Shown here: one piece after another, positions 1 to 35,200 of the stretch
Numbering within the stretch: the stretch's first letter is position 1
Layout of the letters: each line of letters opens with the position of its first letter
From: Candidatus Parcubacteria bacterium
GTDB lineage: Bacteria; Patescibacteriota; Minisyncoccia; Phycocordibacterales; PALSA-1337
Length of the DNA stretch: 64,000 nt
Reading direction: 5' to 3'
Assembly (NCBI GenBank): GCA_039799225.1
Contig: JBDLTF010000001.1
Span: 42,488 to 106,487 of the forward strand
Program-made: the position numbers and the translations under genes
Notes under the pieces: generated by a model
The model's database searches: none
Seen by the model: only the letters and a program-made list of their open reading frames with translations
What the model was told of the DNA's origin: nothing

Positions 1-253
1 GAGCGATCTCCTGCTCAGATAAACCATTAATAAAGGTTATCTTCTGTTCATCGATGACATACGTACCATTCAGAGGATCTGAAAAGGTTCCTTCATTCCC
101 TGCAATCACCGGTGCTTTCGCTTCATTCAAGAAAGTCTTTACTTCACGATACTGCACATTGATGTAGTACATGAGTACTGGCAAAATAATCAAGAAGAAG
201 ATAGCCGCCGCAAGCTTCGAATACCAAGTTACTTCATTAAATTTTATGGTCAT
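1..253 (-). CDS. N-terminal part of a hypothetical membrane-anchored protein; the gene runs off the window start. Translation begins MTIKFNEVTWYSKLAAAIFFLIILPVLMYY...
   Basis: Open minus-strand frame with an ATG at 251-253 and a hydrophobic N-terminal helix. No family recognised. Confidence 0.4.
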   Translation of the reverse strand, partial: MTIKFNEVTWYSKLAAAIFFLIILPVLMYYINVQYREVKTFLNEAKAPVIAGNEGTFSDPLNGTYVIDEQKITFINGLSEQEIA

Positions 254-268
254 AGATTTTATATATTA

Positions 269-432
269 GGATGGGAGATCGCCCGCGACTCTCACTCGGC
301 TACCCGCCTCGTTCGGTCTGGGCACCGCCTCGCGGTTGCTCGTTGCTACTCGCAACATCGCTCCGGCGTTCGATTCTCCTCTCGCATGACACTCAAGTGT
401 CATGCTTACCTCAGTTAGTATACTAGATTTTG
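269..432 (-). repeat. tRNA-Gly-associated GC-rich element, copy 1. It contains a 118-nt core identical to copy 2, is preceded by the 10-nt mimic ggatgggaga of the tRNA 3' end, and ends in a 9-bp hairpin at 385-406.
   Basis: Direct sequence comparison with 1963-2128. The core at 273-390 equals 1972-2089 at 118/118. GC is about 62% against about 45% in the flanks. The segment GTTCGATTCTCC matches the tRNA T-arm. Confidence 0.6.
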
Positions 433-503
433 TGCGGGATGGGAGAATCGAACTCCCGACCACAGTTTGGAAAACTGTTATTATACCATTTAACTAATCC
501 CGC
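433..503 (-). tRNA. tRNA-Gly (anticodon UCC)
   Basis: Manual cloverleaf: acceptor GCGGGAT/ATCCCGC, anticodon stem ACAGT/ACTGT with loop TTTCCAA, T-arm GGGAGTTCGATTCTCCC. No encoded CCA. Confidence 0.7.
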
Positions 504-558
504 TTGGTTCCGCCATAGTAGCAGATTAACGGGAATTTGGAAATATTTTCACTAAGTG

Positions 559-1014
559 CTATTTCCCTGTATCCTCGTGGTGATGTATCGCGTGTTCCTT
601 CTCAACAACCTCCTTGATGATATCAACTTCTTTTTTCATCTCCCGTATAGCGTCTCTGATCTGTCCTATCTCCTTTTCTTCCTCCTCGATCTCCTTCCCT
701 GTCTTATCAGCAGCTTTCTTCTGATGCTTGAGACCACTCATGAGTATTGTATCTCCAATGAAATAAGATACGAAGAGGCCTGTTGCAAGAAGAATTGCCA
801 CCATCAAGATTAGATTGACTGGCTCATAGAATATAAAACCGAGTACTCCCCCTTTTTTCTGGAGCAAATCTGCTGTGTGCCAAACGCCGCGCCAGAAGAG
901 TACTATCGATGTGGCGCCGATGATTGTATAGATGATTGGATAACGGCTCAAATGGCCACGGACCTTATCCTCGAACCTATCAAAAAATAAAATCACTTTG
1001 CGTATCATGGCCAT
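559..1014 (-). CDS. Small membrane protein with two to three TM helices and a C-terminal charged coiled-coil tail (His-rich end)
   Basis: Minus-strand ORF of 151 aa with hydrophobic segments followed by an EEEEKE-rich tail. Confidence 0.45.
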   Translation of the reverse strand: MAMIRKVILFFDRFEDKVRGHLSRYPIIYTIIGATSIVLFWRGVWHTADLLQKKGGVLGFIFYEPVNLILMVAILLATGLFVSYFIGDTILMSGLKHQKKAADKTGKEIEEEEKEIGQIRDAIREMKKEVDIIKEVVEKEHAIHHHEDTGK

Positions 1015-1101
1015 GATTATATCATGTCGACATGCATCTCTCGAACAAGACAGCGTGCGAACTCGTAGAATTTTCGTCTTTATGCTAGGATGTTCTCACA
1101 A

Positions 1102-1175
1102 CGGAGCGTGGTGTAACGGCTAACATACCTGTTTTGGGAACAGGTGACTCCGGGTTCGAGTCCCGGCGCTCCGAC
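1102..1175 (+). tRNA. tRNA-Pro (anticodon UGG)
   Basis: Acceptor CGGAGCG/CGCTCCG, anticodon stem CCTGT/ACAGG with loop TTTGGGA, T-loop GTTCGAGTC. Confidence 0.7.
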
Positions 1176-1182
1176 ACGAAGT

Positions 1183-1207
1183 GACGACGCAAAAACCTCC
1201 ATTTATG
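1183..1207. terminator. Bidirectional rho-independent terminator aaaaacctcca-ttt-atggaggttttt
   Basis: Perfect hairpin flanked by A-run and T-run, between tRNA-Pro (+) and the yraN-like gene (-). Confidence 0.6.
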
Positions 1208-1228
1208 GAGGTTTTTAGGGACTCGAAC

Positions 1229-1606
1229 CTACAATACAACGTTTTTAAGCCATTTCACGCGAGCTCGCCGTACCGAGATGTCCATGTATACGCATAGGAC
1301 GTGAAACTGGAATTCAGAACCTAGTCCCCTATTCGTATCCTCAAGATAACATTCAATTGTACGTCTAAGCCGTTTCAGCTTGAGCGCATGAACATTATCC
1401 TCAGGACGATGACCGTCAACCGAGTATTCATTTCGGACAACAATGCTCTTTACCTCAAAAAAGTGTGTAATCCCTTCCTTGGTAGCTACAATATCCAATT
1501 CACCCCATTTCTTGAGATAGTTCCGGGTGACGATCGAAAACCCCTGTTTCCGGAGAAATACACAGGCTATATCCTCCCCTTTGTCTCCTTTTGTCCTTGT
1601 ATCCAT
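1229..1606 (-). CDS. yraN: YraN/UPF0102 family putative endonuclease
   Basis: 125 aa. Motifs GEDIA..FL..G and DIVA...HFFEVK are typical of UPF0102. Confidence 0.65.
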   Translation of the reverse strand: MDTRTKGDKGEDIACVFLRKQGFSIVTRNYLKKWGELDIVATKEGITHFFEVKSIVVRNEYSVDGHRPEDNVHALKLKRLRRTIECYLEDTNRGLGSEFQFHVLCVYMDISVRRARVKWLKNVVL

Positions 1607-1962
1607 GTTTTTGCTATTATATGGCTATAAATATAGTGTTTCACGTGAAAGTTTCAACATATTTGTCCTGACTTTTAAAATCGAGGGTATTAAAAATGGC
1701 TCTAAATATAGGTTTTACGACAAAATACCGCATCTGTGGACAAAAAATGGGTCAAAACCACGATAATAAGCCATTATTTGTGTCTTTTATACCCACTACC
1801 CACAGAGTTATCCCCAGTTTGTCTCTATAATTGACGATGTTGAGCCATTTTTTAAGGAAATCCCCAAAAAGGACAGTGGACAATCCTTTAAGTACAGAAA
1901 AAGGCGTAAATGATCAATCTTTCTGATTATTCACGCCTTTCCCTTGGTATCTACGGTCTTGG

Positions 1963-2128
1963 TGCGGGTAGGGAGATCGCCCGCGACTCTCACTCGGCTA
2001 CCCGCCTCGTTCGGTCTGGGCACCGCCTCGCGGTTGCTCGTTGCTACTCGCAACATCGCTCCGGCGTTCGATTCTCCTCTCGCATGACGCGTAGGCGTCA
2101 TGCTTACTTACTCGTAATATTGAGCCTG
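1963..2128 (-). repeat. tRNA-Gly-associated GC-rich element, copy 2. It is preceded by the 14-nt mimic tgcgggtagggaga of the tRNA-Gly(GCC) 3' end, and its hairpin at 2082-2103 carries compensatory changes relative to copy 1.
   Basis: 118/118 identity with copy 1 over 1972-2089. The hairpin gcatgacgc-gtag-gcgtcatgc in copy 2 corresponds to gcatgacac-tcaa-gtgtcatgc in copy 1. Confidence 0.6.
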
Positions 2129-2199
2129 TGCGGGTAGGGAGAATCGAACTCCCATCTCGTCCTTGGCAAGGACGCATTTTACCACTAAACTATACCCGC
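2129..2199 (-). tRNA. tRNA-Gly (anticodon GCC)
   Basis: Acceptor GCGGGTA/TACCCGC, anticodon stem CGTCC/GGACG with loop TTGCCAA, T-arm GGGAGTTCGATTCTCCC. Confidence 0.7.
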
Positions 2200-2324
2200 T
2201 TATATCGACGAACATCCACGAGTATATACTATTCTCAAAATATTTCAAAGGGTTTGGGCTTCTGATTTCGGGCAAGCAGTGCTACTATAGCGATGTTACA
2301 CGTGTAACACACCGATCGAAATTT

Positions 2325-2396
2325 GCCCTCGTGGTGAAATGGATATCACAACTGTCTTCGGAACAGTCGTTGGGGGTTCGAGTCCCTCCGAGGGCA
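2325..2396 (+). tRNA. tRNA-Arg (anticodon UCG)
   Basis: Acceptor GCCCTCG/CGAGGGC, anticodon stem ACTGT/ACAGT with loop CTTCGGA, T-loop TTCGAGT. A perfect 14-bp palindrome gttacacgtgtaac lies upstream at 2296-2309. Confidence 0.65.
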
Positions 2397-2439
2397 CACA
2401 ACATCGTAACGGCTAGAACTATAGCCAAAACTACCTAAT

Positions 2440-3933
2440 ATGGCCTCAAAAATAGCAGGAAACAGCGCTATACCACAGGAAATCACAGCTATTATCGAAA
2501 CTCTCGAAAAAGCTGGTTTTCAGGCATACCTCGTCGGAGGATGCGCACGAGATCTCTTCCTTGGACGTGTTCCAAAGGACTGGGATGTCACAACCAACGC
2601 AAAACCTGAACAAATACAGGCGCTTTTCACGAAAACCGTCTATGAAAACACCTTCGGTACTGTCGCCGTCATAAATGAGGCTACCGAAGATCCTAAGCTC
2701 AGGAATGTTGAAGTAACACCGTATCGTCTCGAGTCAGGGTATTCAGATCGACGCCATCCAGACTCCGTGAAATTCAGCGATAAGATAGAGGATGACCTTC
2801 AGCGCCGTGACTTTACGGTCAACGCGATAGCATTGTCCTTGTCCGATGGGGCTATAAAGGACATAATTGACCTATACGGGGGTTTTGCTGATATAAAGGA
2901 CAAATCCATCAGGACCGTGGGAAAACCTCAGGATCGCTTCAATGAGGACGCTCTACGCATGATGCGTGCGATTCGATTTGCAGTGGAACTAGGTTTCACC
3001 ATAGAAGAGGATACATTCTCGGCTATAAAATCTCTCCATACTACAATTCAGCAGGTATCAACCGAGCGTATTCGCGATGAGTTCGTGAAAATACTCATGT
3101 CACCGAGCCCTAAGAGGGGAATCGAACTCCTTCAGGAGGTTGGTATATTGAAGTACTTTATACCTGAGCTGGAGAAGAGTATTGGTGTTACACAGAATCA
3201 GGCTCACGCTTTCACGGTCTGGGAGCACCTTCTACGTAGTCTCCAGCATGCCGCAGACGAGAACTGGAGTCTGGATATACGAATTTCAGCCCTTTTCCAC
3301 GATATCTCAAAGCCTGAGACGAGGCGTGTTTCACGTGGAACATCTCAACCGACGTTTTACGGCCACGAGGTAGTTGGTTCACGTGAAACACGCAAGATAC
3401 TCGAAAGATTGAAGTTTTCACGTGTAATCATCGAGAAAGCGACGAAAATGGTCCGTTGGCACATGTTTTTCTCAGATACAGGCACAATTACACTCTCAGC
3501 TGTACGCCGTATGATAGTAAACGTAGGGAAAGAGAACATCTGGGACCTTATGAACCTCCGTATCTGTGATCGTATAGGTACTGGTAGGCCGAAAGCTGAT
3601 CCGTATCGTCTGAGGAAGTATAAATCAATGGTTGAAGAGGCTTTGCGTGATCCTATTTCGGTCACCATGCTCAATATTGATGGCAAGAGAATTATGGAGG
3701 TAGGGGACATTCCTGCTGGTCCAAAGATTGGTTTGGTGCTCAATGCGCTCATGGAAGAGGTGCTTGAAGATCCAAAACTTAACACTGCAGAATACCTAGA
3801 GAAAAAGACTCTGGCGCTTTTGGCTTTGCCTGAAAAAACGTTGAAGGAGCTTGCTGAAAAAGGAAAAGAGAAGAAAGGGGAGGCTGAAGAACAGGACCTC
3901 GAAACGATTCGTAAGAGACACCACGTCTCCTAG
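2440..3933 (+). CDS. cca: CCA-adding tRNA nucleotidyltransferase / poly(A) polymerase family protein with a C-terminal HD domain
   Basis: 497 aa. N-terminal GGCARDLFLGRVPKDWDVTT nucleotidyltransferase head motif, RFAVELGF, and an HD-domain-like middle region. Sits immediately downstream of a tRNA cluster in which no tRNA encodes CCA. Confidence 0.8.
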   Translation: MASKIAGNSAIPQEITAIIETLEKAGFQAYLVGGCARDLFLGRVPKDWDVTTNAKPEQIQALFTKTVYENTFGTVAVINEATEDPKLRNVEVTPYRLESGYSDRRHPDSVKFSDKIEDDLQRRDFTVNAIALSLSDGAIKDIIDLYGGFADIKDKSIRTVGKPQDRFNEDALRMMRAIRFAVELGFTIEEDTFSAIKSLHTTIQQVSTERIRDEFVKILMSPSPKRGIELLQEVGILKYFIPELEKSIGVTQNQAHAFTVWEHLLRSLQHAADENWSLDIRISALFHDISKPETRRVSRGTSQPTFYGHEVVGSRETRKILERLKFSRVIIEKATKMVRWHMFFSDTGTITLSAVRRMIVNVGKENIWDLMNLRICDRIGTGRPKADPYRLRKYKSMVEEALRDPISVTMLNIDGKRIMEVGDIPAGPKIGLVLNALMEEVLEDPKLNTAEYLEKKTLALLALPEKTLKELAEKGKEKKGEAEEQDLETIRKRHHVS

Positions 3934-5348: not shown

Positions 5349-5918
5349 TTATCTAAAACTATTCAACGCCTCACTTGCAGAAAGTAGCTCTCCCACTCCA
5401 TCTTCCTCAGTGAAATGCCCTTTCGCATGTTCAATAATAATTTTTGGATTCAAAGCTTTTTCGAACGCTTCCTTATTCGCTTCTAACGGCACAGACTTGT
5501 CATTATCAGAGAAAATAGCTACGAACTTATCTGACATCTTGCGTATATTCATAAAATCGATCGGCCTTTCTATCCATGGACGAGCAATGTCTTGTTCTTC
5601 TTGAGTTTCGAGATTGGCGACCTGAAGCCACGGGGCGATCAAGATAAGTCCGCCAAGCTTTGATCCTTTATTCATCTCCAAATACCTGAGGATTGCCTGA
5701 CACCCAATACTGTGACCTATGAAATAGGTATCCTGATCGACATAATATACATTCTCCTCCAAGTGCTTGGTCCACGCGTCGATAGTCGGCACACCGGGGT
5801 TCGGCATATCAAGAACAGTTACCTCAAACCCTGCTTCTGTGCCAACTTTCCCCAGCCAAGAAATAAGAGGTTCTTTTGAACTACCATCCCAACCATGAAC
5901 AATTATAAGTCTTTTCAT
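5349..5918 (-). CDS. Alpha/beta hydrolase of the YdeN/RBBP9-like serine hydrolase family
   Basis: 189 aa. N-terminal IIVHGWDGS, nucleophile elbow GHSIGC, and a C-terminal His. Confidence 0.55.
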   Translation of the reverse strand: MKRLIIVHGWDGSSKEPLISWLGKVGTEAGFEVTVLDMPNPGVPTIDAWTKHLEENVYYVDQDTYFIGHSIGCQAILRYLEMNKGSKLGGLILIAPWLQVANLETQEEQDIARPWIERPIDFMNIRKMSDKFVAIFSDNDKSVPLEANKEAFEKALNPKIIIEHAKGHFTEEDGVGELLSASEALNSFR

Positions 5919-18861: not shown

Positions 18862-19851
18862 ATGAATCAAGAAGGTGGACACAAAAAACTCATACTAACG
18901 ATACTCGTACTCATTCTGCTTCTCATCGTTGCTGGCCTACTGATTCCTTGGAACAAACCTGAGGAAGTCGCCGTAGATACCACTGGAAATGGGACTGTCT
19001 TTTCTCCATTCGAACGTCCTGTAGATCGTGTAGTTGATACTCGATCGCCCGAAACTCCGTATACTTATGTACCTACACTCGAAACTCCAGAGGAGATTCC
19101 TGAGGAGCCGGCTATCGTAAACTCTGCACCAAGAACTCAGTCTTCATTCTATTCCGGAACTCAATCAAGCCAATCTTTCAATATACCCGTCTCGACGAGG
19201 CAAACTGGCGAAGTTGCATACATGGATACTTCTGGGGGAATATATTATGTTCCAACATACTCTCCGAGCCCTTACTATCGACCAACGTATACCTACTCGA
19301 CGAGCACTCGACCAGTAAGTCAGCCAGCAGCGCAAGATGATGGTATGACATTCAAAGAGCTGGACAAAGAAGTCTTCGGTTATATAAGCGGTCTTGGTTG
19401 GACTCAATTGCTTGGTGATACTGGCCAGAAAGTGTATGACATCCTCTATGGAATGTCTCCAAACGGCGGTACTGGAGGTACTATCGGTACATTCTTGCCT
19501 GGAGCAGGGGGTGCTGGAGGAGGAATTGGAGCTCTCGGAGGAGGCGGTATAGGGGGTCTCGGTGGCGGAGGTACTGCTATGGCATTTGGAGGACAAGTAA
19601 CTAGAGTAACCCAGTGTACCTGTGGAAATTCGAGCATGCTCGATATCACTGAAGCGACCGGACAGAATATATCACTCGTTTTCCAGCCAGGAGTGAGCAT
19701 TCTCTACAGGGAAGCGAACATCAACGGCATAGGCCAGAATGTTCTCGGAAATTACACTGCTGGCGGCGCCTGTCTTGTATATCACGGCGAAGATTGCACC
19801 GCTGAAGGTAGTCCTGGAGGCACCATTACCGAGGTTGGGACTTCGAAATAA
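18862..19851 (+). CDS. T4SS-like operon gene 1: membrane-anchored protein with a Pro/Thr/Tyr-rich linker and a Gly-rich repeat (GGTGGTIGTFLPGAGGAGGGIGALGGGGIGG)
   Basis: 329 aa. N-terminal TM, then low-complexity region. Begins 14 nt after rsmA. Confidence 0.5.
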   Translation: MNQEGGHKKLILTILVLILLLIVAGLLIPWNKPEEVAVDTTGNGTVFSPFERPVDRVVDTRSPETPYTYVPTLETPEEIPEEPAIVNSAPRTQSSFYSGTQSSQSFNIPVSTRQTGEVAYMDTSGGIYYVPTYSPSPYYRPTYTYSTSTRPVSQPAAQDDGMTFKELDKEVFGYISGLGWTQLLGDTGQKVYDILYGMSPNGGTGGTIGTFLPGAGGAGGGIGALGGGGIGGLGGGGTAMAFGGQVTRVTQCTCGNSSMLDITEATGQNISLVFQPGVSILYREANINGIGQNVLGNYTAGGACLVYHGEDCTAEGSPGGTITEVGTSK

Positions 19852-19902
19852 AGTCAGAAACAAAAACAGTGATACCTGTCCACAGATACGGCCGAGAATC
19901 TA

Positions 19903-20802
19903 TTGATTTTCTGCTATACTTGTAGTGACATGGCGAGCTATTACCCTCACAAACAGACGGTCTTGATCACGATCGCATGCGTCATAGCCGTAGGCGGCGT
20001 ATTTGTATACGCAAAGCAAGGTTCTAGCCCGAAAAAATCAGACTCAAAACCCTCTGTTTCGACTGATATCAAGGTGGTCTCTTCTGAGAAAATATCCTCC
20101 ACAACGGATTGGCGTCTGAGCTTCATCGACAAGCAGACTCCTTCGACACCAAAACCTATTTCTACTACTCAAGAATCGAAAGACCTTACTCTGACGGATC
20201 AATTCGGCAGAGATTTCTTCGCACGCTACATACAACTCAAGCAAAGCAACCTCATCGAGAATGAATCGTTCGTCGCTGATACGCTCAATCAGTCTATATA
20301 CTCCGCTGCTCAATCAGCTGAACAACCAAAAGCATATACTCTCGCGGATGTTTCCATTCTCGCAAATGCCACTACGGCTCAGATAAAAGCGTATGGTAAT
20401 TCTATCGGTCTAATATTTTCCACTCATGGAGTCGATGGAGATCCTGCAGTCGTTGCAAACGAGGCATTTGAAAAAGGGGATATGAGCTTACTCAAACAGA
20501 TAGACCCTATCATATCTTCATATGAAACTATCACCACCATGCTCAAAAATCTTTCTGTGCCTCAACCGCTCGCTGCATATCATGTAGATCTATTGAATGC
20601 TGTATCGAGCATGGCGAAGACATCTCGTGATATCCGCAATGTTGAAAGCGATCCTATGCAGACGATGGTGTCCGTAAGCGCGTATACCACCGTACAAAAC
20701 TCGCTCACTGTGTCACTCAAGAGTATGAAGTCTTATTTCTCCATCGTTGGTATCTCGTACGTTTCGACGGAGCCTGGTTCGATCTTTTCCCAACTATTAT
20801 AA
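19903..20802 (+). CDS. T4SS-like operon gene 2: membrane-anchored or secreted hypothetical protein
   Basis: 299 aa with an N-terminal TM/signal anchor. Confidence 0.5.
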   Translation: MIFCYTCSDMASYYPHKQTVLITIACVIAVGGVFVYAKQGSSPKKSDSKPSVSTDIKVVSSEKISSTTDWRLSFIDKQTPSTPKPISTTQESKDLTLTDQFGRDFFARYIQLKQSNLIENESFVADTLNQSIYSAAQSAEQPKAYTLADVSILANATTAQIKAYGNSIGLIFSTHGVDGDPAVVANEAFEKGDMSLLKQIDPIISSYETITTMLKNLSVPQPLAAYHVDLLNAVSSMAKTSRDIRNVESDPMQTMVSVSAYTTVQNSLTVSLKSMKSYFSIVGISYVSTEPGSIFSQLL

Positions 20803-20811
20803 AACACACTT

Positions 20812-22416
20812 ATGAATATCATTAACAAAAAAATCGCTTCGGTCCTCATACTCATCGCTTTCGTCATCTCTGGCACTCTCGCAACGCCAGCAACGACCTA
20901 TGCACTTGGAGCGGTTCCCGTCGACACAACATTCAACTTCCATAGCATCCAGCAACAAACGAAGGATTTCGTGCTGAACTCACTCGCATGGAATGTGGCT
21001 AAGATGACGTTGCAGCAGCTCACGACGAGTATCGTGAACTGGATCAACACTGGATTCGAGGGAAGTCCTGCATTCATCGACAACCCTGAGGCATTCTTCC
21101 TTGACCTTGGCGACCAAGTCACTGGAAACTTCATTGCAAACGTCGGACCACTCCAAAGCCTCTGTTCTCCATGGAATATCGACCTCCGTCTCTCACTCGC
21201 ACTCGGACAAACACGTTCAATGAGCGAACGCTATCGCTGTACCTTGAGTACACTCATCGGTAACGCGCAGAATGCGACTATCAATGGCTACAGTATCGAA
21301 GGATTCACTTCTGGCGACTTCGCTCAAGGAGGATGGCCAGCATTCATGATCATGACGAGCGAACCTCGCAACAATCCATACGGATCATATCTTCAGGCGA
21401 AGAGTGACCTCGATCAGCAGATAGCCGCTAAACAAAACTCCGTCAACAGTGACCTCGACAGGGGACAGGGCTTCCTCTCGTGGCAAAAGTGCGTTCCTAC
21501 CAACGTGAACAGCAATACAGGAAATGCATCTTCTCTTGGTCTCAATCAGAACGACCTCGCTCAATTGAATGCAAATGGTTCAGTAAATGCGAACGGTACA
21601 AGCTACAAAACGAGTACTGATCCTGAAACAGGATATACCGTATACGAAACATGCTCCGTACAAACTCCTGGATCGGTCATCAGTGCAGGTCTCAATAAGA
21701 GCCTTGGATCAAGTGTGGACCAGCTCAACCTTGCTGACTCGATCAACGAAATTACGAGTGCACTCTTCGCTCAGCTCATATCTCAAGTCTTCACTAAGGG
21801 TCTCGGTGGAAGCAGTCAAAGGTCAGGTGGTCAGACACAGTCATACATCGAACAACTCAATGCACAGTCGAGAGGTGCTGGTGCATATTCAAACTCGACG
21901 CAGAATATCCAGGCAAGCTACGCAATATATCTCACTGATGCCCAGTCAATCGTCAGCACGTATCAGCAAGCTGTAGGTGCATTCGACACTACCCGCAGTA
22001 GCTTCTCGATTGCACAGGGTTGCTTCCAAGATATCGCTCTCGTAGCAACGAAGCAAACCATCAAGAATGAGGCTCAGCGCAATGCAGATGCAATACAGTC
22101 ACTACTCATCAACCAGTTCGGCCCAGCAGCGCTCATATATTCAGACAAGCTCTCTACAGCAAACAGAATAGTCAGTACGATCAATTCTCGCGTCAATTCG
22201 GCACAGAATATCACCGATGCTCAGAGTGCACAGACTGCTTCGAACCAGTTGCAGGAATTCATCGCCACCCAAGTCCCCGCTATCCAGCAAGGCAAAGATC
22301 TTGGCGCGGCAGATCTTACCGCAGCACGAGCTCAAGCAGCACAATTCAAGACGAATGCTGATCAATATATGAATATGTGTACTTCACTCAAAAGCCAATC
22401 AGGTTCCTCACGATAA
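20812..22416 (+). CDS. T4SS-like operon gene 3: secreted Gln/Ser/Asn-rich hypothetical protein
   Basis: 534 aa with signal peptide ending ...GTLATPATTYA. Confidence 0.5.
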   Translation: MNIINKKIASVLILIAFVISGTLATPATTYALGAVPVDTTFNFHSIQQQTKDFVLNSLAWNVAKMTLQQLTTSIVNWINTGFEGSPAFIDNPEAFFLDLGDQVTGNFIANVGPLQSLCSPWNIDLRLSLALGQTRSMSERYRCTLSTLIGNAQNATINGYSIEGFTSGDFAQGGWPAFMIMTSEPRNNPYGSYLQAKSDLDQQIAAKQNSVNSDLDRGQGFLSWQKCVPTNVNSNTGNASSLGLNQNDLAQLNANGSVNANGTSYKTSTDPETGYTVYETCSVQTPGSVISAGLNKSLGSSVDQLNLADSINEITSALFAQLISQVFTKGLGGSSQRSGGQTQSYIEQLNAQSRGAGAYSNSTQNIQASYAIYLTDAQSIVSTYQQAVGAFDTTRSSFSIAQGCFQDIALVATKQTIKNEAQRNADAIQSLLINQFGPAALIYSDKLSTANRIVSTINSRVNSAQNITDAQSAQTASNQLQEFIATQVPAIQQGKDLGAADLTAARAQAAQFKTNADQYMNMCTSLKSQSGSSR

Positions 22417-22434
22417 TCTACTATCACAGACTCC

Positions 22435-24354
22435 ATGAAACGCTACCTGCCACATCTATCAGCAATTCTCATCCTTATCGCCATCATAGTAGGCGGATTT
22501 GGACATGTGGCAAATGCGGGATCATGTCTACCTATTCCAGGCCAGTGGAATACAAATGATTGTGTCATCGACCTCTTCGGATCTGCTATAGATATATTGC
22601 TTGGAGCAGCATCATGGATACTCGCTCTCTCAGGATATGTGCTCAACTTCTCAATGAAGCTGACACTCAATATCAAGACATTCGTGGATAATACTGGCGC
22701 AATCTATCTCGTCTGGAAATCAATCCGCGATATATCGGGTATGTTCATCATCTTCACCTTGATCTTCGCTGCCATCAAGATGATACTCGCTCCTATAGGA
22801 GTACCTGGTCCGAGTGTCGGAAAACTAATTACGACTGTGGTAACAGCCGGCATATTGATCAACTTCAGCTTCTTCATTGCTGGCCTCGGTATAGATATCT
22901 CCAACGTAATATCTGCACAGCTCTACAAGGTCATAGCGCCTGAAAGTAATATTTCTGGAGACATGAAAGTGAATCCTTCGTCATTGCGTGCGGGTCTCGA
23001 TGGGGGAATATCAGACATATTCATGAGCTCGCTCAAAATACAGAAGCTCTACGAAAGTGGACTTGCCGCTGATCCAGGTCGACAGGATCAAAATCCTGCA
23101 GAGACCACTATTCGAGTCATTTGGTCTGGAATCATCGGTATCGTCATCATGATCACCTCTGCACTCAGCTTCTTCCTCGCTGCGTTAGCATTCATCGTAC
23201 GCTTCGTTATTCTTATATTCCTGCTTGGATTCTCTCCTATCTGGCTTGCCGCGTACGCCATACCAGATCTCAAAAAATATGCCGACATGTGGACGAACAC
23301 ATACAAGAGTCAGCTCATCTTCATGCCGGTATATCTTCTCTTGCTCTATTTCGGCTTGAGTGTGCTTACAAGTGCTGACCTCTTCTGGGCTGGAAGCTTC
23401 GATGGGGCAGGGTGGCAAGAAAAGTTGCTCGTCTTCGGTATTAATGCGGCCTTCGTCATCATCATGCTCAATGCACCACTTCTTGCAGCTCTCAGTATTG
23501 GAGCAATGATGCCTAAGTGGGCGAATAATGTAGGTGCAGGAGCAATATGGAAGAGTGTTGGTGGATGGGCAGGTGGTATAGCTGGCAGAGGTACGATGCG
23601 AGTAACTGGTGCCTCGAAAGTTGATGGTTATCTTGCAAATACCAAGGTCGGTAACACTCAGTGGATGCGTGATCTAAGATCAGTAACAACAGGACCTATT
23701 ACCAAGGCAAAATTTGGTAGTTCAAGGTCTATTGAAGATGTCGACAAACTAGGTAAGGACGTACAATCAAAAGCAAAAGAAATACAGAGGGTCAAAGACA
23801 TTAAAGCTCTTATTGCGAATGGTTCAGCGACACGAGATGAATATGCGAATGTATTCAAATCCGTTAAACCTGCTGACCGCGTAGAGCTGATTGGAAAGGA
23901 TAATCTCAAGAATCCAAGTGTCTGGAAGAACCTTGGAAAGGCTGAGCTCGACGCAATAGAGAAATCAGACAAATTTAGCCCTGATGACATCAGCAGTATA
24001 AAGAATGCCCGCAACGCAGCACTCACCTCAGCAGTAGCTGACGGAAGAAAAGACGACACTAGTCATGTCTTGAAAAATACAAATACGGAGGATTTGGCTG
24101 AAATTATTTCAAGTAACACTGCTATGCTCGCTAATCCAAACTTTATTGGTGAGCTGACATCGGAAAATCTAACAAAGTTGAAAGGTGGCCTCACTGAGCC
24201 TCAGCAACATGAAATAGCAAAAACTATTCTGACATGGCGCAGTGGCCCATCAGATCCAGCGCATCCTGCGGAAGGTTGGATGAAACGCGAAGCGAAAAAG
24301 TGGGTTACTTCGGACGTGACCGCACACGGAAAAACATACGCTCCAGAAGCCTAA
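22435..24354 (+). CDS. T4SS-like operon gene 4: polytopic membrane protein of the VirB6/TrbL type with a hydrophilic C-terminal extension
   Basis: 639 aa. Signal/anchor, then six or more TM helices over about 380 aa, then a Lys-rich soluble tail. This topology is typical of VirB6/TrbL. Confidence 0.5.
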   Translation: MKRYLPHLSAILILIAIIVGGFGHVANAGSCLPIPGQWNTNDCVIDLFGSAIDILLGAASWILALSGYVLNFSMKLTLNIKTFVDNTGAIYLVWKSIRDISGMFIIFTLIFAAIKMILAPIGVPGPSVGKLITTVVTAGILINFSFFIAGLGIDISNVISAQLYKVIAPESNISGDMKVNPSSLRAGLDGGISDIFMSSLKIQKLYESGLAADPGRQDQNPAETTIRVIWSGIIGIVIMITSALSFFLAALAFIVRFVILIFLLGFSPIWLAAYAIPDLKKYADMWTNTYKSQLIFMPVYLLLLYFGLSVLTSADLFWAGSFDGAGWQEKLLVFGINAAFVIIMLNAPLLAALSIGAMMPKWANNVGAGAIWKSVGGWAGGIAGRGTMRVTGASKVDGYLANTKVGNTQWMRDLRSVTTGPITKAKFGSSRSIEDVDKLGKDVQSKAKEIQRVKDIKALIANGSATRDEYANVFKSVKPADRVELIGKDNLKNPSVWKNLGKAELDAIEKSDKFSPDDISSIKNARNAALTSAVADGRKDDTSHVLKNTNTEDLAEIISSNTAMLANPNFIGELTSENLTKLKGGLTEPQQHEIAKTILTWRSGPSDPAHPAEGWMKREAKKWVTSDVTAHGKTYAPEA

Positions 24355-24363
24355 TATCATTAT

Positions 24364-25098
24364 ATGAAGCAAACACCTCAACAATTTAGAGACCTCGCTG
24401 ACTCAGCTGAACTCTACGACCGATCCGAAGCGATTGGCGCGAAATTTGGTCTGCTCATCGACCAAATAGGGGAGTTGGATGCAGAAATTCGCGACATTCT
24501 CAATGGTGTCAGTGATTCGGAAGACTTCATCAAGCACATCATCCAGCGTCTTGAGATAGACCGCGGACTCGCCGAAAAAATAGTAACGGAGGTCAATGTG
24601 GCCGTATTCCAAACACTCAAAGACCAGATGCAGGCACGAACGGATGCTCAGGATATACAAGACTCAATCTCGAGCGTAGAGAAAGTGGGTGATTTCAGGA
24701 TAGAGAAGGATAGAGTGCCTGCAGATCCGAAAGTTACTGCTGCGGATAGGAGCAAGATACTCGATAGTCTCGAAAATCCACCGGCTCAAGGAGGTGCGTA
24801 CCCAAAATCAGTCTCTACAGACCATACTGAACCTCTTGTCGACCATCTTCTTCAAAATTCAGTAGGACAGCTTGCGCCGAAGCCTCACCACGAAGCTCCA
24901 GCTCCAAGCAATCTCCCTGTAGTAGAAGAGATTCCTCTGAAAACACCTGCGCCAACTCCAATAAAAGCTCCAGCACCTACCGCCCCAAAGCCTGTTCAAG
25001 CACCAACACAACCGACAACTACTCCAGAAGTACCGAAAACTCCAGCACCTCAACCAAAAAGGTCTGGACCTGACCCTTATAGGGAACTAGCGAACTAG
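24364..25098 (+). CDS. T4SS-like operon gene 5: soluble protein with a Pro/Ala-rich C-terminus
   Basis: 244 aa. Confidence 0.45.
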   Translation: MKQTPQQFRDLADSAELYDRSEAIGAKFGLLIDQIGELDAEIRDILNGVSDSEDFIKHIIQRLEIDRGLAEKIVTEVNVAVFQTLKDQMQARTDAQDIQDSISSVEKVGDFRIEKDRVPADPKVTAADRSKILDSLENPPAQGGAYPKSVSTDHTEPLVDHLLQNSVGQLAPKPHHEAPAPSNLPVVEEIPLKTPAPTPIKAPAPTAPKPVQAPTQPTTTPEVPKTPAPQPKRSGPDPYRELAN

Positions 25099-25132
25099 CA
25101 CACATTCTCACTTGCCGGTATAATAAAGAGCA

Positions 25133-25564
25133 ATGCGCTATCAAGTCCCCCAATTTATCGAGGTTGAGGACAAGATCTTCGGCCCACTTACCTTGAAACA
25201 GTTCATATATCTCGCCGGCGGGGGAGGTCTCTCATTTTTGGCCTATGTATTTGTCGGTAGTCTCACTATCGCCATAGTACCTATCATTGTCATCATGGCA
25301 ATATCCTCTGCTCTGGCATTCTATCGAATCAATAACAAACCATTCGTTAACATCGTCGAATCTGCATTCAAATACTGGCTCGGTAGCAAGCTCTACATCT
25401 GGAAAAAAGAAGACAGGGCATCACAAACCGCGAAATCAGTTGATGCAGACATCAAGAACTACGCCTCAATCATGGTTCCGAAAATTTCTGATAGTAAGCT
25501 GAAGGATTTGAGTTGGAGCTTGGACATCAAAGAAAGTATGTACTCTGACAAGAAACAAAAATAA
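25133..25564 (+). CDS. T4SS-like operon gene 6: small two-TM protein of the VirB3/PrgI type
   Basis: 143 aa. Two adjacent TM helices, positioned immediately upstream of the VirB4 ORFs as in Gram-positive T4SS loci. Confidence 0.5.
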   Translation: MRYQVPQFIEVEDKIFGPLTLKQFIYLAGGGGLSFLAYVFVGSLTIAIVPIIVIMAISSALAFYRINNKPFVNIVESAFKYWLGSKLYIWKKEDRASQTAKSVDADIKNYASIMVPKISDSKLKDLSWSLDIKESMYSDKKQK

Positions 25565-26205
25565 TGGCTCCCAAACAATCAACAACTCAAGGATTTATAC
25601 CGATACAGGAGATTCGCGACGGCGTAGTCATCCTCAAGAACGGCGGTATGCGCGCAGTCGTCTTGGCGTCGTCTCTCAACTTCGCTCTCAAGTCACAGGA
25701 TGAGCAGAGCTCAATCCTTATGCAGTTCCAGAATTTTGTGAACTCACTCGATTTTTCCATACAAATATTCGTCCAGTCTAAGAAACTCGATATCAGACCA
25801 TACATCGCGCTTCTCGAAGACCGCTACAAAGAACAGGTGAGTGAGCTCATGAAGATTCAGGTTCGTGAATACATCGAATTCATCAAAACATTCGTCGAGA
25901 GTACCAACATCATGTCCAAGAGCTTCTTCGTGGTCATACCCTATGATCCACCTATTATGAGTGGTAGCAAAAATCCTCTCGCCAGCATGTTCCCAGGGAA
26001 GAGTGGTGACAAAACTGCAGCAGAGAGCTCAAATGCAAAATTCCAAGAATATCGCAGCCAACTCGAACAGCGTGTCGGCGTGGTAGAGCAGGGCCTCGTG
26101 CGTTGCGGTGTCCGTGCGGCTGAGCTTGGTACAGAAGAAGTAGTTGAGCTCTTCTACAAACTCTTCAACCCTGGCGAGACGGAGAAGCCAATTCAGATAA
26201 CTTAA
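25564..26205 (+). CDS. VirB4/TrsE-family ATPase, N-terminal segment (split gene)
   Basis: 213 aa. The N-terminus resembles the VirB4 N-terminal domain. It ends with TAA 5 nt before the next ORF, which is in a different frame. Confidence 0.55.
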   Translation: MAPKQSTTQGFIPIQEIRDGVVILKNGGMRAVVLASSLNFALKSQDEQSSILMQFQNFVNSLDFSIQIFVQSKKLDIRPYIALLEDRYKEQVSELMKIQVREYIEFIKTFVESTNIMSKSFFVVIPYDPPIMSGSKNPLASMFPGKSGDKTAAESSNAKFQEYRSQLEQRVGVVEQGLVRCGVRAAELGTEEVVELFYKLFNPGETEKPIQIT

Positions 26206-26210
26206 AAGAT

Positions 26211-28022
26211 ATGTCATTCCTCAACAAACTATTCGGAAAAAAAGAAGCTTCTCCTATCGTCTCAATCCTGCCCGAGGAGATCTATCAGGCTGGCGTCCTC
26301 GAACTCAAGGATGTTATTTCGCCATCAGCGCTCAAGGTGAGTCCGAAGGATATAAATCTCGGAGAAAAAGTTGGTCGCACACTCTTCGTCATCTCATACC
26401 CACGCTTCCTCGATGAGAGCTGGTTCGCGCCAATCATAAACCTCGACAAGATATTCAATATCTCCATATTCATACATCCTGTCGATACTGCGAAGATTTT
26501 GAGGCATTTCCAGAAGAAGGTTGCTGAAGTTCAGAGCCAGATCTCCCATAGGGAAGAGAAGGGTCTCGTTCGTGATCCAGCGCTCGATACCGCATACCAA
26601 GATCTCGAGCAGCTTCGCGATCAGCTCATGCAAGCACAGGAGCACCTCTTCGATGTTGGTGTGTATATTACTCTCTTCGCTGATAATGAGGGTGAGCTCG
26701 ACAAGCTTGAATCAGAGATCAAGTCTATCCTCGAGTCCAAGCTTATCTATGTGAAGCCAGCTCTCTTCCAACAGGAACAGGGATTCAAGTCTGTTATTCC
26801 GATCGCTGACGATCAGCTCGCCGTTCATTCCAAGCTCAACTCGTCACCGCTCTCATCTCTTTTTCCATTCGTCTCATTCGACCTCACCTCAGACAAGGGA
26901 ATCCTCTACGGTATCAACCGTCACAACTCATCACTCGTACTCTTCGATCGCTACTCACTCGAGAACTACAACTCGGTGACTTTCGCCGTTGCCGGTGCTG
27001 GAAAATCCTACAACACCAAGCTTGAGATCCTCCGAACACTCATGTTTGATGTCGACGTCATAGTCATCGACCCTGAGAAGGAATATGAATACATGGCGGA
27101 AGCAACAGGAGGGAAGTACTTCAATATCTCACTCAACTCAGAGCACCACATAAACCCATTCGATCTTCCGATACCACGCGAGGATGAGTCTGGTGCAGAT
27201 GTGCTCCGCTCAAACATCATCAACCTTGTCGGTCTCTTCCGCATCATGTTGGGAGGTCTCACACAAGAAGAAGATGCAATCATAGATCGTGCCATCACTG
27301 AAACTTACGCCCTCAAAGATATCACTCCTGAGGCTGATTTCCGCACCGTCGAACCACCACTTCTCTCCGACTTTGAGCTCGTGCTTGCCGGCATGGAAGG
27401 GGGAGAATCTCTTGTGCAGAGGCTCTCGAAATATACCAAAGGAACTTGGTCAGGCTTCATCAATAGGCCGTCAAACATCGATATCAATAAGAAATTCGCT
27501 GTGTTTTCACTCCGCGACATGGAAGATGAGCTCAAGCCAGTGGCCATGTACATCGTCACACACTACATCTGGAATGCTATCCGCAAGAACCTCAAGAAGC
27601 GCCTTCTTGTTATCGATGAGGCGTGGTGGATGATGAAATCAGAGGACACGGCTTCATTCTTGTTCAGCCTCGCCAAGCGTGGTCGTAAATACTTCCTCGG
27701 TCTCGCCACAATCACTCAGGACGTGGATGACTTCTTGAATTCACCGTATGGACTGCCGATTGTGACCAACTCCTCAATCCAGATTCTTTTGAAACAGTCA
27801 CCAACTGTTATTGATCACGTCCAGAAGACTTTCAACCTCACTGATGAAGAGAAATACCTCTTGCTCGAGTCAGACGTAGGGGAGGGTATATTCTTCGTGG
27901 GTCTCAAGCACGTCGCCATCAAAATCGTCGCCTCATATACTGAAGACCAAATCATCACCACCAACCCTGCTCAGGTTTTGAGCATACAGCAATCAAAGAA
28001 GGATCTTGAGCAGGCTGGGTAA
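26211..28022 (+). CDS. VirB4/TrsE/CagE-family T4SS ATPase (ATPase domain)
   Basis: 603 aa. Walker A FAVAGAGKSY, Walker B RLLVIDEAWWMM, and motif ATITQDVDDF. Confidence 0.75.
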   Translation: MSFLNKLFGKKEASPIVSILPEEIYQAGVLELKDVISPSALKVSPKDINLGEKVGRTLFVISYPRFLDESWFAPIINLDKIFNISIFIHPVDTAKILRHFQKKVAEVQSQISHREEKGLVRDPALDTAYQDLEQLRDQLMQAQEHLFDVGVYITLFADNEGELDKLESEIKSILESKLIYVKPALFQQEQGFKSVIPIADDQLAVHSKLNSSPLSSLFPFVSFDLTSDKGILYGINRHNSSLVLFDRYSLENYNSVTFAVAGAGKSYNTKLEILRTLMFDVDVIVIDPEKEYEYMAEATGGKYFNISLNSEHHINPFDLPIPREDESGADVLRSNIINLVGLFRIMLGGLTQEEDAIIDRAITETYALKDITPEADFRTVEPPLLSDFELVLAGMEGGESLVQRLSKYTKGTWSGFINRPSNIDINKKFAVFSLRDMEDELKPVAMYIVTHYIWNAIRKNLKKRLLVIDEAWWMMKSEDTASFLFSLAKRGRKYFLGLATITQDVDDFLNSPYGLPIVTNSSIQILLKQSPTVIDHVQKTFNLTDEEKYLLLESDVGEGIFFVGLKHVAIKIVASYTEDQIITTNPAQVLSIQQSKKDLEQAG

Positions 28023-28509
28023 CATCATTATGGATACAAATCCCAAAAAGAGAACTCTTGCAAAGATAGTCCTTTTCGGATTTTCTGCAATCGTAGACTT
28101 CGCTCAGGTACTCATAACCTTCACTGGTGTCGGTATAGTGGTGAGTGAAGCGATTGAGATTGCTATGCCATTTGCCTTATTCGCACTATTCACTATATTC
28201 AAGATATCTATCATCAATAAACCGAGAAGAGTGGCATCTATGCTTGCTGTCGGATTTGGAGATGCTTTGACGGGTGGTGTAGCGCCATTTTGGGTATTCG
28301 ATGTCTACTATATATTCCGAGATGTGGCCAGAGAAGACGCCCTTATAAATTCAGAACGAGAACAATCTGAAGCCTTGGCAAACACCACAATGCAGCCTTT
28401 ATACCAAAATGGTGTCAGACAGCCACAATCTCAGCCTAATGAAAGACCACAGAACAAACTCAACAAAAATGGTATCCGAGCACCTGGAGGAGGACTGGTC
28501 AAAAGCTAG
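28006..28509 (+). CDS. T4SS-like operon gene 9: small membrane protein with three TM helices
   Basis: 167 aa. Confidence 0.45.
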   Translation: MSRLGNIIMDTNPKKRTLAKIVLFGFSAIVDFAQVLITFTGVGIVVSEAIEIAMPFALFALFTIFKISIINKPRRVASMLAVGFGDALTGGVAPFWVFDVYYIFRDVAREDALINSEREQSEALANTTMQPLYQNGVRQPQSQPNERPQNKLNKNGIRAPGGGLVKS

Positions 28510-28562
28510 CCTATACACATTTTTCATCGCATATAGAGCGTAATATTGCTAAAATAGAGTCA

Positions 28563-29597: not shown

Positions 29598-29606
29598 TCA
29601 TTTCTC

Positions 29607-30764: not shown

Positions 30765-30777
30765 TCGATAGATTTCT

Positions 30778-33541: not shown

Positions 33542-33628
33542 TTGTCCCCAACTTATCAACATAAATTTTATCTCTCCACAAGTTTGCAAATCTATAAACA
33601 GGTATATACTTACTGGGCATCAAATCCT

Positions 33629-34975: not shown

Positions 34976-35200
34976 TTGGGGAAAAGTCTGTGAATAAGTT
35001 GTATATAGAGTAGGAAAAGTCTGTGGGTAAACCGATAAGTAATACACATAAACATCTCAGGAAAAAACCAGATAAAAACTTTCAACAAGATGTTTAAAAT
35101 AAAAAACCTATAGCACTCATATCTGAAGCCATTAAATTAATTTATACACATACCCACAGGACTAATAACGAATGTGTGATTAAATAAATAAAAAACTACT
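34976..35200. promoter_or_regulatory. Putative oriC: AT-rich dnaA-dnaN spacer with DnaA-box-like 9-mers TGTGAATAA, TGTGGGTAA, and CCACAGG on the opposite strand
   Basis: Boxes one mismatch from TTATCCACA, AT-rich runs (the DNA unwinding element), and a position typical of Firmicutes-type origins. Confidence 0.5.

Follow-up and report, generated by a model that had tools for sequence, protein, structure and literature searches.

A previously undescribed family of folded non-coding elements behind tRNA genes in Paceibacteria, closed by a helix that matches the host tRNA

We analysed a 64-kb stretch of a Candidatus Parcubacteria genome (contig JBDLTF010000001.1; hereafter the window), in which a short, GC-rich, non-coding element follows each of two tRNA-Gly genes. 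The element is one of a family of folded, non-coding sequences, not described before, that lie behind tRNA genes in Paceibacteria, which are bacteria of the candidate phyla radiation (CPR). Taken together, the existence of this family, its genomic context and its structure are conclusions in which we place high confidence. We rate the element as a small structured intergenic element or trailer RNA, unusual in having a closing helix that is built from, and co-varies with, the 3' end of the host tRNA. The explanation that we prefer is a structured RNA module of tRNA trailers that has spread by recombination on tRNA homology, to which we give a probability of about 0.5.

The two window copies form a repeat of 137 nucleotides (nt) at 96% identity (273-409 and 1971-2107) on the 3' side of each tRNA-Gly gene, and the interior of this repeat (273-390 and 1971-2088) is identical at 118/118 positions. 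This agrees with the original prediction, which was made from the letters of the window and had described two copies with an identical 118-nt core directly 3' of the tRNA-Gly genes. Some of its measurements were adjusted: both tRNA genes, called with ARAGORN and Rfam, lie on the minus strand as it said but extend to 432 and 2128 rather than 433 and 2129, and the core is GC-rich at 65% rather than about 62% (46% for the window). A 36-mer from the core occurred twice in the 64 kb and in 0 of 100 shuffles, and an unfiltered covariance-model scan of the window returned the same two copies and no others. Each copy was said to be bounded at its far end by a direct repeat of its own tRNA's 3' end, and both repeats are present, namely GGATGGGAGA for copy 1 (269-278 = 437-446, 10 nt) and GTGCGGGTAGGGAGA for copy 2 (1962-1976 = 2128-2142), the latter being 15 nt long, one more than had been noted. 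The T-arm-like segment described in the orientation opposite to the tRNA was likewise found in both copies (GTTCGATTCTCC, 368-379 and 2066-2077). It is the complement of the tRNA T arm, with complementarity extending over 18 nt at 89%, and forms the 5' strand of a closing helix, P1, whose partner is the tRNA 3'-end copy at the far end. The 9-bp hairpin that had been taken for the end of the element does differ between copies by one compensatory pair (A-T versus G-C), as do three of its four loop bases, but it sits between the linker and the inverted T-arm segment (Table 1). This position, P-alpha, is occupied in most family members by a hairpin of unrelated sequence. The linker of copy 1 contains a 10-nt palindrome, TAGTATACTA, and its ..GAGGTAAG is probably the degenerate remnant of an antisense acceptor strand, judging from members that carry GTGCGGGTA there.

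The gene for the CCA-adding enzyme next to the element places the window in Patescibacteria/Paceibacterota, and it was used as the query that yielded 80 orthologous loci from GTDB genomes (cited below by L numbers). Diverged homologues at 85-72% identity were recovered among these loci by blastn and nhmmer, and a covariance model, R1, was built from 18 diverged homologues and run over the 1.02 Mb of loci. R1 gave 33 matches in 19 Paceibacteria genomes, a lower bound, as the model missed a relic in L068. All 33 of these copies lie behind a tRNA, 13-186 nt downstream on the same strand, a condition that only about 3% of positions meet by chance. Their hosts are tRNA-Gly(GCC) (n = 11), tRNA-Arg(UCG) (n = 11), tRNA-Gly(UCC) (n = 8) and tRNA-Pro(UGG) (n = 3), and the element measures about 130-190 nt across the family. 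Unrelated GC-rich loci and contigs scored no higher than 13.7 bits with R1. The tRNA association is not an artefact of tRNA-like sequence in the model, because the Arg-hosted subfamily without T-arm-like ends was still found. It was noted that some copies are nearest to the copy behind another tRNA of the same genome (window, L030, L100, L092) and others to copies behind the same tRNA in other genomes (Gly-UCC in L083/L065/L071; the Arg subfamily), and that orthologous copies are kept at the same tRNA across genomes with only 73-82% CCA-enzyme identity.

No known Rfam family matches the element: a scan against Rfam 15 returned only tRNAs at threshold, and a scan of window positions 150-2450 relaxed to E<=10 gave nothing over the element. 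No match to the element was obtained by blastn against phage and plasmid collections, from exact 20-23-mer patterns of the core in viral contigs (0 matches) or from the exact pattern GGCGTTCGATTCTCCTCTCG in GTDB genomes (0 matches). Fifteen exact matches in JGI metagenomes were set aside as chance, being 20-26 nt long on contigs of 58-73% GC with no tRNA context, as were nine viral-contig matches to a degenerate core pattern (<=21 bits, no tRNAs near, the best inside a 333-aa open reading frame). No description of a comparable element was found in the literature searched, which included a survey of Patescibacteria tRNA introns. We also considered and rejected a small protein, since a frame of 45-56 aa runs through the core on the tRNA strand; its ends differ between the copies, indels in the family break the frame, and a six-frame translation of the element found no homologue among 5.8 billion proteins.

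Read in the sense of the tRNA, the parts of the element share one order. The tRNA is followed by a variable linker, often with a long palindromic terminator-like hairpin, then by the acceptor 3' strand copied in antisense (for example GTGCGGGTG) and by P-alpha. Next, also copied in antisense, are the T stem and T loop, with AA(A/C) behind them, and then the P2 arm. In this arm helices PA and PB flank an invariant GGA/GA internal loop, and beyond PB a stem of 8-9 bp ends in a tetraloop of the ANYA type (AGCA, ACCA or AGUA), with GG(G) next. The long P3 hairpin has in most copies a GGUCG...UGACC base with a conserved G.U pair, a one-base bulge and often a C-GACG-G tip. The last part is a direct copy of the host tRNA from C56 of the T loop to the 3' end, CCA included where it is gene-encoded, after which the native trailer resumes. 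The antisense and direct tRNA copies pair as P1.

The proposal that selection acts on RNA or DNA structure was borne out by covariation across the family and by a strand-specific fold. On the model alignment 94% of cells pair, compared with 28-48% when the partners are slid, and compensatory changes on both sides were seen in 15/16 pairs, values reached by 0/500 shuffles. RNAalifold on an independent MAFFT alignment gave compensatory changes in 8/9 pairs. The P2 and P3 arms were compared through per-sequence folds, as the MAFFT register differs between subfamilies and made one alignment-wide P2 structure unworkable; the same two hairpins appeared in 29/29 strong members despite unrelated stem sequences. 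The minimum-energy fold of L083 contains P1a, P-alpha, P1b and P3 (z = -6.8), and the window copy folds with a z-score of -4.1. We found that the tRNA-sense strand folds more stably than its complement in 22/22 members (mean 8.4 kcal/mol; p = 5e-7), that the model pairs include 26 G.U versus 12 A.C, and that the P2 and P3 arms hold 39 G.U versus 1 A.C mismatch. The conserved fold sits on the tRNA-sense strand. From the tests of stability and G.U bias it follows that the folded molecule has the polarity of the tRNA transcript, which favours RNA. Compensatory changes beyond the controls, joined to a strand-specific G.U bias, are what is generically looked for in a structured RNA, and both are present here.

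The closing helix is specific to the host. Its left strand (IR-left) reads GGAGAATCGAAC behind tRNA-Gly, GAGGGATTCGAAC behind tRNA-Arg (L037) and CCTGGATTCGAAC behind tRNA-Pro (L030), and in L061 it follows the unusual T loop of its host. The antisense acceptor strand agrees with the host at 9/9 positions in L083, L077, L067 and L078, and in 11 copies the right strand (IR-right) agrees with the host 3' end for 13-16 nt. The pairing of IR-left extends to the discriminator and C74, and to CCA in L061. In many copies the acceptor part of P1 has decayed, both window copies included, where the T-arm part is intact and the acceptor part survives as ..CGAGTAAG (copy 2) or ..GAGGTAAG (copy 1) in the linker; a tRNA-like P1 is missing altogether from the Arg subfamily. 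If the gene does not encode CCA, IR-left goes on into the complement of its trailer, in many cases by way of a long, perfectly palindromic hairpin of terminator-like form, and it was therefore copied from the gene and not from the mature tRNA. The same continuation into the trailer complement, rather than into CCA, rules out priming by a mature tRNA as at a retroviral-type primer-binding site, and it points to a DNA-level inverted duplication or to palindrome correction as the probable source. It was also noted that the terminator-like hairpins immediately behind the tRNAs in the linkers of L083, L073, L080, L100, L102 and L061 are perfect palindromes of unusual length, with arms of 14-20 bp; on one side they run into the final bases of the tRNA and on the opposite side into an inverted copy of those bases. 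In L037 (3177-3230), whose Arg-hosted copy is the nearest of its kind to the window copies (85% identity), a 40-nt insert consisting of two small palindromes, GATGTACATC and CGAAACCT..AGGTTTCG, interrupts IR-right; these palindromes are nested in the element, and a second partial T-arm copy follows.

Relative to close relatives the window copies are insertions, and the sites are polymorphic. The four closest relatives (L001, L004, L005/6 and L007/8, with CCA-enzyme identities to the window of 94, 92, 88 and 82%) keep the same four tRNA genes, both tRNA-Gly genes among them, and the flanking genes; no trace of the element was detected by blastn in their syntenic loci. Window segments 1229-1976 and 2128-2309 map by blastn onto L001 with one end of each on the same bases, 1772-1786, so that L001 has one tRNA 3' end and the window has two, 151 nt apart. 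In a manual alignment the distal repeat of copy 2 is followed by the orthologue of the native L001 trailer (21/33 identical, equal length) and by the terminator. A filled and an empty site can likewise be compared between L030 and L032 (90% identity), where a 21-nt repeat is present and the native trailer TAGGATA stands behind the distal copy. L041 and L028 likewise disagree in whether they carry the element, as do L063 and L068/L074, and presence/absence differences were recorded in four pairs of relatives at 86-94% protein identity. Of two loci from the Hainich H41 wells, L024 is empty and L037 is filled. Truncated relics were found in L068, in L090 and as the second unit at tRNA-Pro of L030. 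These empty sites, together with the position of 33/33 family members just downstream of a tRNA, support the suggested tie between insertion and tRNA 3' ends.

The distal repeat of copy 2 keeps an encoded CCA (GCACCAAG), and the functional tRNA now reads GCAC/AGG. The insertion of copy 2 took the encoded CCA off the functional tRNA-Gly(GCC) (window 2128-2135), and the displaced distal copy (1958-1969) has GCACCA; the same loss from the proximal tRNA was seen in L083 (Gly-UCC) and L041 (Arg). The window tRNA-Gly(GCC) must now obtain its CCA from the CCA-adding enzyme, whose gene (2440-3933) lies 240 nt away. The relic of L068, downstream of tRNA-Arg 5777-5851, retains a host-specific antisense T arm (GGCAGGAATCGAAGCC) and a P3-like hairpin, and its P2 arm is gone.

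We further examined how copies may reach new sites. The direct repeat varies in length (10, 15, 19, 21 nt or longer), the long repeats being a second truncated unit at L030-Pro and a duplicated trailer in L041. One junction invariably coincides with the 3' terminus of the tRNA, falling after C74 or A76, and the second falls within the T loop or T stem, the direct repeat beginning between C56 and T60 and ending at C74 or A76; both junctions are thus within sequence common to the donor and recipient tRNA loci. No terminal inverted repeats were found at the insertion ends (copy 2 ends AGGCTCAAT.. / ..GCGGGCGA). The inspection for mobility genes covered about 47 window open reading frames and the 13-kb loci of relatives, and no reverse transcriptase, transposase, HUH enzyme or extra integrase was found among the former or next to any copy in the latter. 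The only recombinase in the window is a syntenic Xer-type gene, which is there with or without the element, and RuvABC is present. No group II introns were reported in a survey of 95 complete Patescibacteria genomes (PMC13011429). Copying by homology, with no dedicated mobility enzyme, would be the simplest account. The original prediction had listed a miniature tRNA-targeting mobile element among its candidates, of which the tRNA-linked, polymorphic insertion stands. A classical miniature transposon (miniature inverted-repeat transposable element) does not, as terminal inverted repeats, a transposase and a fixed target duplication are all missing (10, 15, 19 and 21 nt were seen). No parent transposase element with the same ends was found in the 64-kb window or the 1 Mb of loci.

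A structured RNA co-transcribed with the tRNA as a 3' trailer had also been among the predicted candidates, and it is the reading that we consider best, given the conserved structure on the tRNA-sense strand. On this explanation the element would be transcribed with the tRNA or by read-through from it, and the RNA would fold into a three-way junction clamped by P1, a clamp that may keep the extra tRNA-derived strands from disturbing the folding of the real tRNA. Without it these strands can invade the tRNA, as the equilibrium fold of the whole transcript shows. New copies would arise through homology-dependent copying between tRNA loci or alleles, whether by template switching, unequal gene conversion, or transformation and allelic replacement after DNA uptake. 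With one junction at the end of the tRNA and the second within its T loop or T stem, such copying would leave a direct repeat derived from the target, and recombination between the direct repeats could delete the element precisely and restore the empty site. We infer RNA as the folded form, the clamp role of P1 and the recombination route from the comparisons given above. The invariant GGA/GA loop, the tetraloops and the conserved G.U pair suggest a specific partner, and a protein that binds the conserved core is likely. In the window there is no terminator between tRNA and element, and in relatives the gene downstream of tRNA-Gly(UCC) starts 14-35 nt after the tRNA. Copy 1 lies between tRNA-Gly(UCC) and the start codon (253) of this conserved gene, so transcription must cross the element there.

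Several observations weigh against a co-transcribed trailer RNA. A strong terminator-like hairpin with a T-run stands between tRNA and element in about 20 of the 33 copies, where sense RNA would depend on read-through, and no promoter for the element is evident. The minimum-energy fold of the tRNA together with the element (window 1958-2199) is not a cloverleaf, as the T arm pairs with IR-left and the 5' acceptor strand with the distal 3'-end copy, which gives a 'giant tRNA' into which the element is inserted; with such a thermodynamic optimum, the clamp idea needs co-transcriptional folding. Unlike a tRNA, P1 has its acceptor part paired through the discriminator, and the long perfect palindromes that continue into the tRNA 3' end resemble a DNA-level inverted duplication and not RNA selection. 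The strand bias in G.U pairs is no proof of RNA, because G.T pairs are tolerated in folded single-stranded DNA too. Hitch-hiking on homology alone leaves an elaborate conserved core with invariant loops unexplained. Lastly, the linkers of the window copies are only about 50-60% alike and the cores are identical, which calls for later gene conversion of the core or for separate donors.

An alternative that starts from the same strand-specific structure takes folded single-stranded DNA as the functional form. The element would be a non-autonomous mobile site, comparable to integron attC, the attP hairpin of CTX phage or REPINs, whose IR-left/IR-right stem imitates the double-stranded 3' end of the target tRNA gene and is acted on in trans by a tyrosine recombinase or HUH enzyme whose gene lies elsewhere in the genome. 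We consider this unlikely, and it comes first among the alternatives. The order of tRNA, linker, IR-left, a loop of about 95 nt, IR-right and native trailer is what the CTX-phage mechanism would lead one to expect from an exchange of one strand. The tRNA-sense strand is the lagging-strand template here (dnaA and dnaN lie at 33.5-36.3 kb), the perfect palindromes take in the tRNA end, presence is patchy with decaying copies, and a terminator ahead of the element argues against its expression as RNA. Nevertheless, no candidate enzyme was found in the 64-kb window or the 13-kb loci beyond the universally syntenic Xer gene, and a single crossover makes one repeat element-derived, whereas both are host-specific in window copies that have identical cores. 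Features such as the 39 G.U-type pairs, the tandem G-A motifs and the conserved tetraloops are commoner in RNA, and a circle as small as about 150 nt would have no precedent as a substrate.

The persistence of orthologous copies at the same tRNA across genomes at 73-82% CCA-enzyme identity, in streamlined genomes, would also suit a host-beneficial gene for a trans-acting small RNA with tRNA-like ends, P1 reproducing the acceptor and T stems of the tRNA beside it. RNase P, RNase Z and possibly the CCA-adding enzyme would release a stable RNA of about 130 nt that has a protein partner, and the polymorphism would be ordinary gene loss and duplication. Internal loops and tetraloops are invariant, the topology is tRNA-like (an acceptor-like helix, a hairpin off the 5' strand, a T-like helix and a continuous 3' strand), and distal copies end in CCA where the gene encoded it. 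Against this, the pairing of IR-left with the discriminator and C74, and with CCA in L061, means that the 3' end is not single-stranded as in substrates of RNase P, RNase Z and the CCA-adding enzyme. The decay of the acceptor part of P1 in many copies, the Arg subfamily without a tRNA-like P1, the absence from the nearest relatives, the truncated relics in L068, L090 and the second L030-Pro unit and the lack of an evident promoter count against it as well, and we judge such a gene to be rather improbable.

The host-derived IR-left could instead act as a guide. We hold it quite doubtful that the element is mobile without any protein gene, finds its target by pairing IR-left with the stretch from T loop to 3' end of a tRNA gene or transcript, and has a three-way-junction core that recruits or provides the copying activity. 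If this were true, the element would be a parasite, made of RNA or single-stranded DNA, that carries a guide and homes to tRNAs, and bacteria have no described counterpart.

Very improbable, in our view, is an RNA from the opposite strand, made by a gene that converges on the tRNA, shares a bidirectional terminator with it and has a tRNA-like 3' end. About 20 copies do have a bidirectional terminator exactly at the end of such a gene, and the sequence would end, like a tRNA gene, in T loop, T stem, acceptor 3' strand and terminator; the opposite strand is, however, the less stable one in 22/22 members, the 39 G.U pairs of P2 and P3 become C.A mismatches on it, and no convincing promoter lies upstream in the window. 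Hardly credible is the predicted integrase attachment-site remnant, in the form of attL/attR (a cis-mobilisable mini-element) left by a tyrosine-integrase element at a tRNA 3' end: a direct repeat from T loop to 3' end is the classic footprint of such integrases and is present here, but the interior evolves by compensatory base pairs, unlike double-stranded DNA binding or arm sites, both repeats are host-specific around identical window cores, which a single site-specific crossover cannot give, the repeat ranges from 10 to at least 21 nt, and none of the 33 copies has an integrase or cargo beyond the adjoining syntenic Xer-type gene.

The element was compared with known systems. REPINs/REP, ERIC, Correia and Rickettsia palindromic elements are, like this element, short, non-coding, multi-copy, intergenic and non-autonomous. 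Such repeats are found where transcription units end at their 3' side, fold into long hairpins, are transcribed together with their neighbours and vary in presence between strains (PMC3116915, PMC2817692). REPIN arms, however, are element-specific and recognised by RAYT, whereas the arms here are the host tRNA 3' end and change with the host (Gly, Arg, Pro). The element also differs in standing exclusively behind tRNA genes and in having as its interior a conserved three-way junction with invariant loops and no simple spacer. Since its arms are host-tRNA sequence, and no RAYT, transposase or Y1/HUH gene was found in the 64-kb window, an assignment to REPIN/REP was rejected. Islands and phages that use tyrosine integrases at tRNA 3' ends share the repeat from T loop to 3' end and the insert directly behind an intact tRNA; the insert here is only 130-190 nt, lacks integrase and cargo, has two host-derived repeats and shows RNA-type covariation. 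Casposons, which integrate by Cas1, target the 3' ends of tRNA genes with a target duplication of 14-15 bp, the size of the 15-nt repeat of copy 2. A casposon derivative was nonetheless discarded, as the element has no terminal inverted repeats, a duplication of 10 to at least 21 nt and no Cas1, and is 50-100 times smaller.

The attC site and the attP(+) hairpin of CTX phage resemble the element in having inverted half-sites about 60-100 nt apart that pair within one strand, in strand bias and in conserving structure more than sequence. They differ in that the target here is a tRNA gene end and not attI or dif, and the motifs here are more conserved in sequence than those of attC. Integron attC sites carry outer-end boxes R''/L''...L'/R' (RYYYAAC / GTTRRRY) and occur with an integron integrase and a cassette array. 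No R/L boxes were found in the element, only a near-match, ATCGAAC, at the inner end of IR-left, and there is no array or IntI context, so attC was rejected. The closing inverted repeats, short conserved hairpin and long variable hairpin recall the msr-msd topology of retrons; with no reverse transcriptase adjoining any copy or in the window, a retron was likewise excluded.

Non-coding RNAs that come from or lie next to tRNA transcripts, with helices that imitate the acceptor/T stack, include functional 3' external transcribed spacers of tRNAs (3'ETS-leuZ of E. coli) and tRNA-like RNAs freed by RNase P/Z, namely mascRNA and the tRNA-like domain of tmRNA. In intact copies the element has acceptor-like and T-like helices and a branch on the 5' strand, with the T loop replaced by a helix, the discriminator and C74 paired and the acceptor part decayed in the window copies. 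Unlike these RNAs it has no mimic of the T loop or elbow, and its 3' end is base-paired through the discriminator; the Rfam tmRNA and mascRNA models showed no similarity to the element, and only real tRNAs match mascRNA weakly. Group I introns are common in the tRNAs of Patescibacteria (PMC13011429). The element was not assigned to them, as it has no Rfam match, its core of about 95 nt falls short of the roughly 200 nt or more needed (P3-P9), and the tRNA is complete upstream.

Table 1. Parts of the two element copies and their host tRNA genes in the window.
Feature	Positions	Strand	Remarks
Host tRNA-Gly(UCC), copy 1	432..503	-	Intact; sequence invariant in relatives (ARAGORN, Rfam, alignment)
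Linker, copy 1	406..431	-	From tRNA 3' end to hairpin; only ~50-60% like copy 2 linker
Hairpin P-alpha, copy 1	384..405	-	9-bp stem, 4-nt loop
IR-left, copy 1	368..383	-	5' strand of closing helix P1; tRNA-sense GAGAGGAGAATCGAAC = antisense of T loop + T stem; helix covariation
P2 arm, copy 1	327..367	-	PA (GCC/GGC), invariant internal loop GGA/GA, PB (GCG/CGC), apical hairpin
P3 arm, copy 1	281..326	-	Long hairpin, tandem G-A mismatches, GGGUA loop
IR-right, copy 1	269..280	-	3' strand of P1; CGA + TCTCCCATCC; repeats T-stem + acceptor 3' strand of tRNA-Gly(UCC)
Host tRNA-Gly(GCC), copy 2	2128..2199	-	Proximal copy without encoded CCA (..GCAC/AGG) (ARAGORN, Rfam)
Linker, copy 2	2104..2127	-	Degenerate antisense-acceptor remnant ..CGAGTAAG
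Hairpin P-alpha, copy 2	2082..2103	-	One compensatory pair and loop changed relative to copy 1
IR-left, antisense T arm, copy 2	2066..2081	-	Inverted repeat; helix covariation
P2 arm, copy 2	2025..2065	-	Covariation, per-sequence folds
P3 arm, copy 2	1979..2024	-	Covariation, per-sequence folds
IR-right, copy 2	1962..1978	-	CGA + TCTCCCTACCCGCAC; ancestral tRNA 3' end with encoded CCA kept, then native trailer and terminator
Native intrinsic terminator of tRNA-Gly(GCC)	1900..1940	-	Pushed downstream by the insertion; inverted repeat, orthologous hairpin in L001, L004 and L005

Other features of these loci were recorded. A second, unrelated mini-palindrome stands behind tRNA 3' ends at L004:3116-3160, L004:4628-4697 and about 4280-4325 of L041; it reads TACTTCG..hairpin..CGAAGT plus GCGGGCA/GCAGGCA, the last part being antisense to the tRNA's last bases. 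In L004 it stands after each of the two tRNA-Gly genes, in L041 after the distal tRNA-end copy. In all genomes examined, the first 20-45 nt of the two tRNA-Gly trailers are more alike than they are to their orthologues, which suggests that the 3' flanks of the tRNA-Gly genes may evolve in concert. The tRNA-Pro(UGG) gene is on the plus strand in the window (1102-1175), L001 and L004 and inverted in L005 (3763-3836) and L007 (3842-3915), with synteny otherwise conserved, and the tRNA-Arg(UCG) gene of L007 is turned round as well; small local inversions, each confined to one tRNA gene, seem to be frequent here. Window positions 18862-32100 hold about ten co-oriented genes, mostly without Pfam matches, including a PrgI-family protein (25133-25564) and a VirB4/TraG-type ATPase (26211-28022). 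They form a type IV secretion-like or conjugation-like cluster that adjoins yidC and the dnaA-dnaN origin region (33542-36307). Of the six reading frames, four are open through the GC-rich core, and window open reading frames 266-463, 271-426, 1910-2137 and 1931-2101 (45-75 aa) run across the element into the tRNA and are likely sources of false gene calls.

These findings have consequences for annotation as well as for biology. The open frames of the core could yield false gene calls, and the extra tRNA 3'-end copies mimic integrase att sites and could mislead callers of genomic islands and prophages. The element is partly built from host tRNA sequence and combines long vertical persistence with gain and loss between near relatives, which makes it a tractable case for the colonisation of tRNA genes without a transposase and for palindrome-driven template switching at gene ends. 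If the core binds a protein or is catalytic, it would represent a new tRNA-linked ribonucleoprotein or mobility mechanism. The family adds an unannotated, structured-RNA-like family to the Patescibacteria, in whose tiny genomes a conserved non-coding structure is unlikely to be idle.

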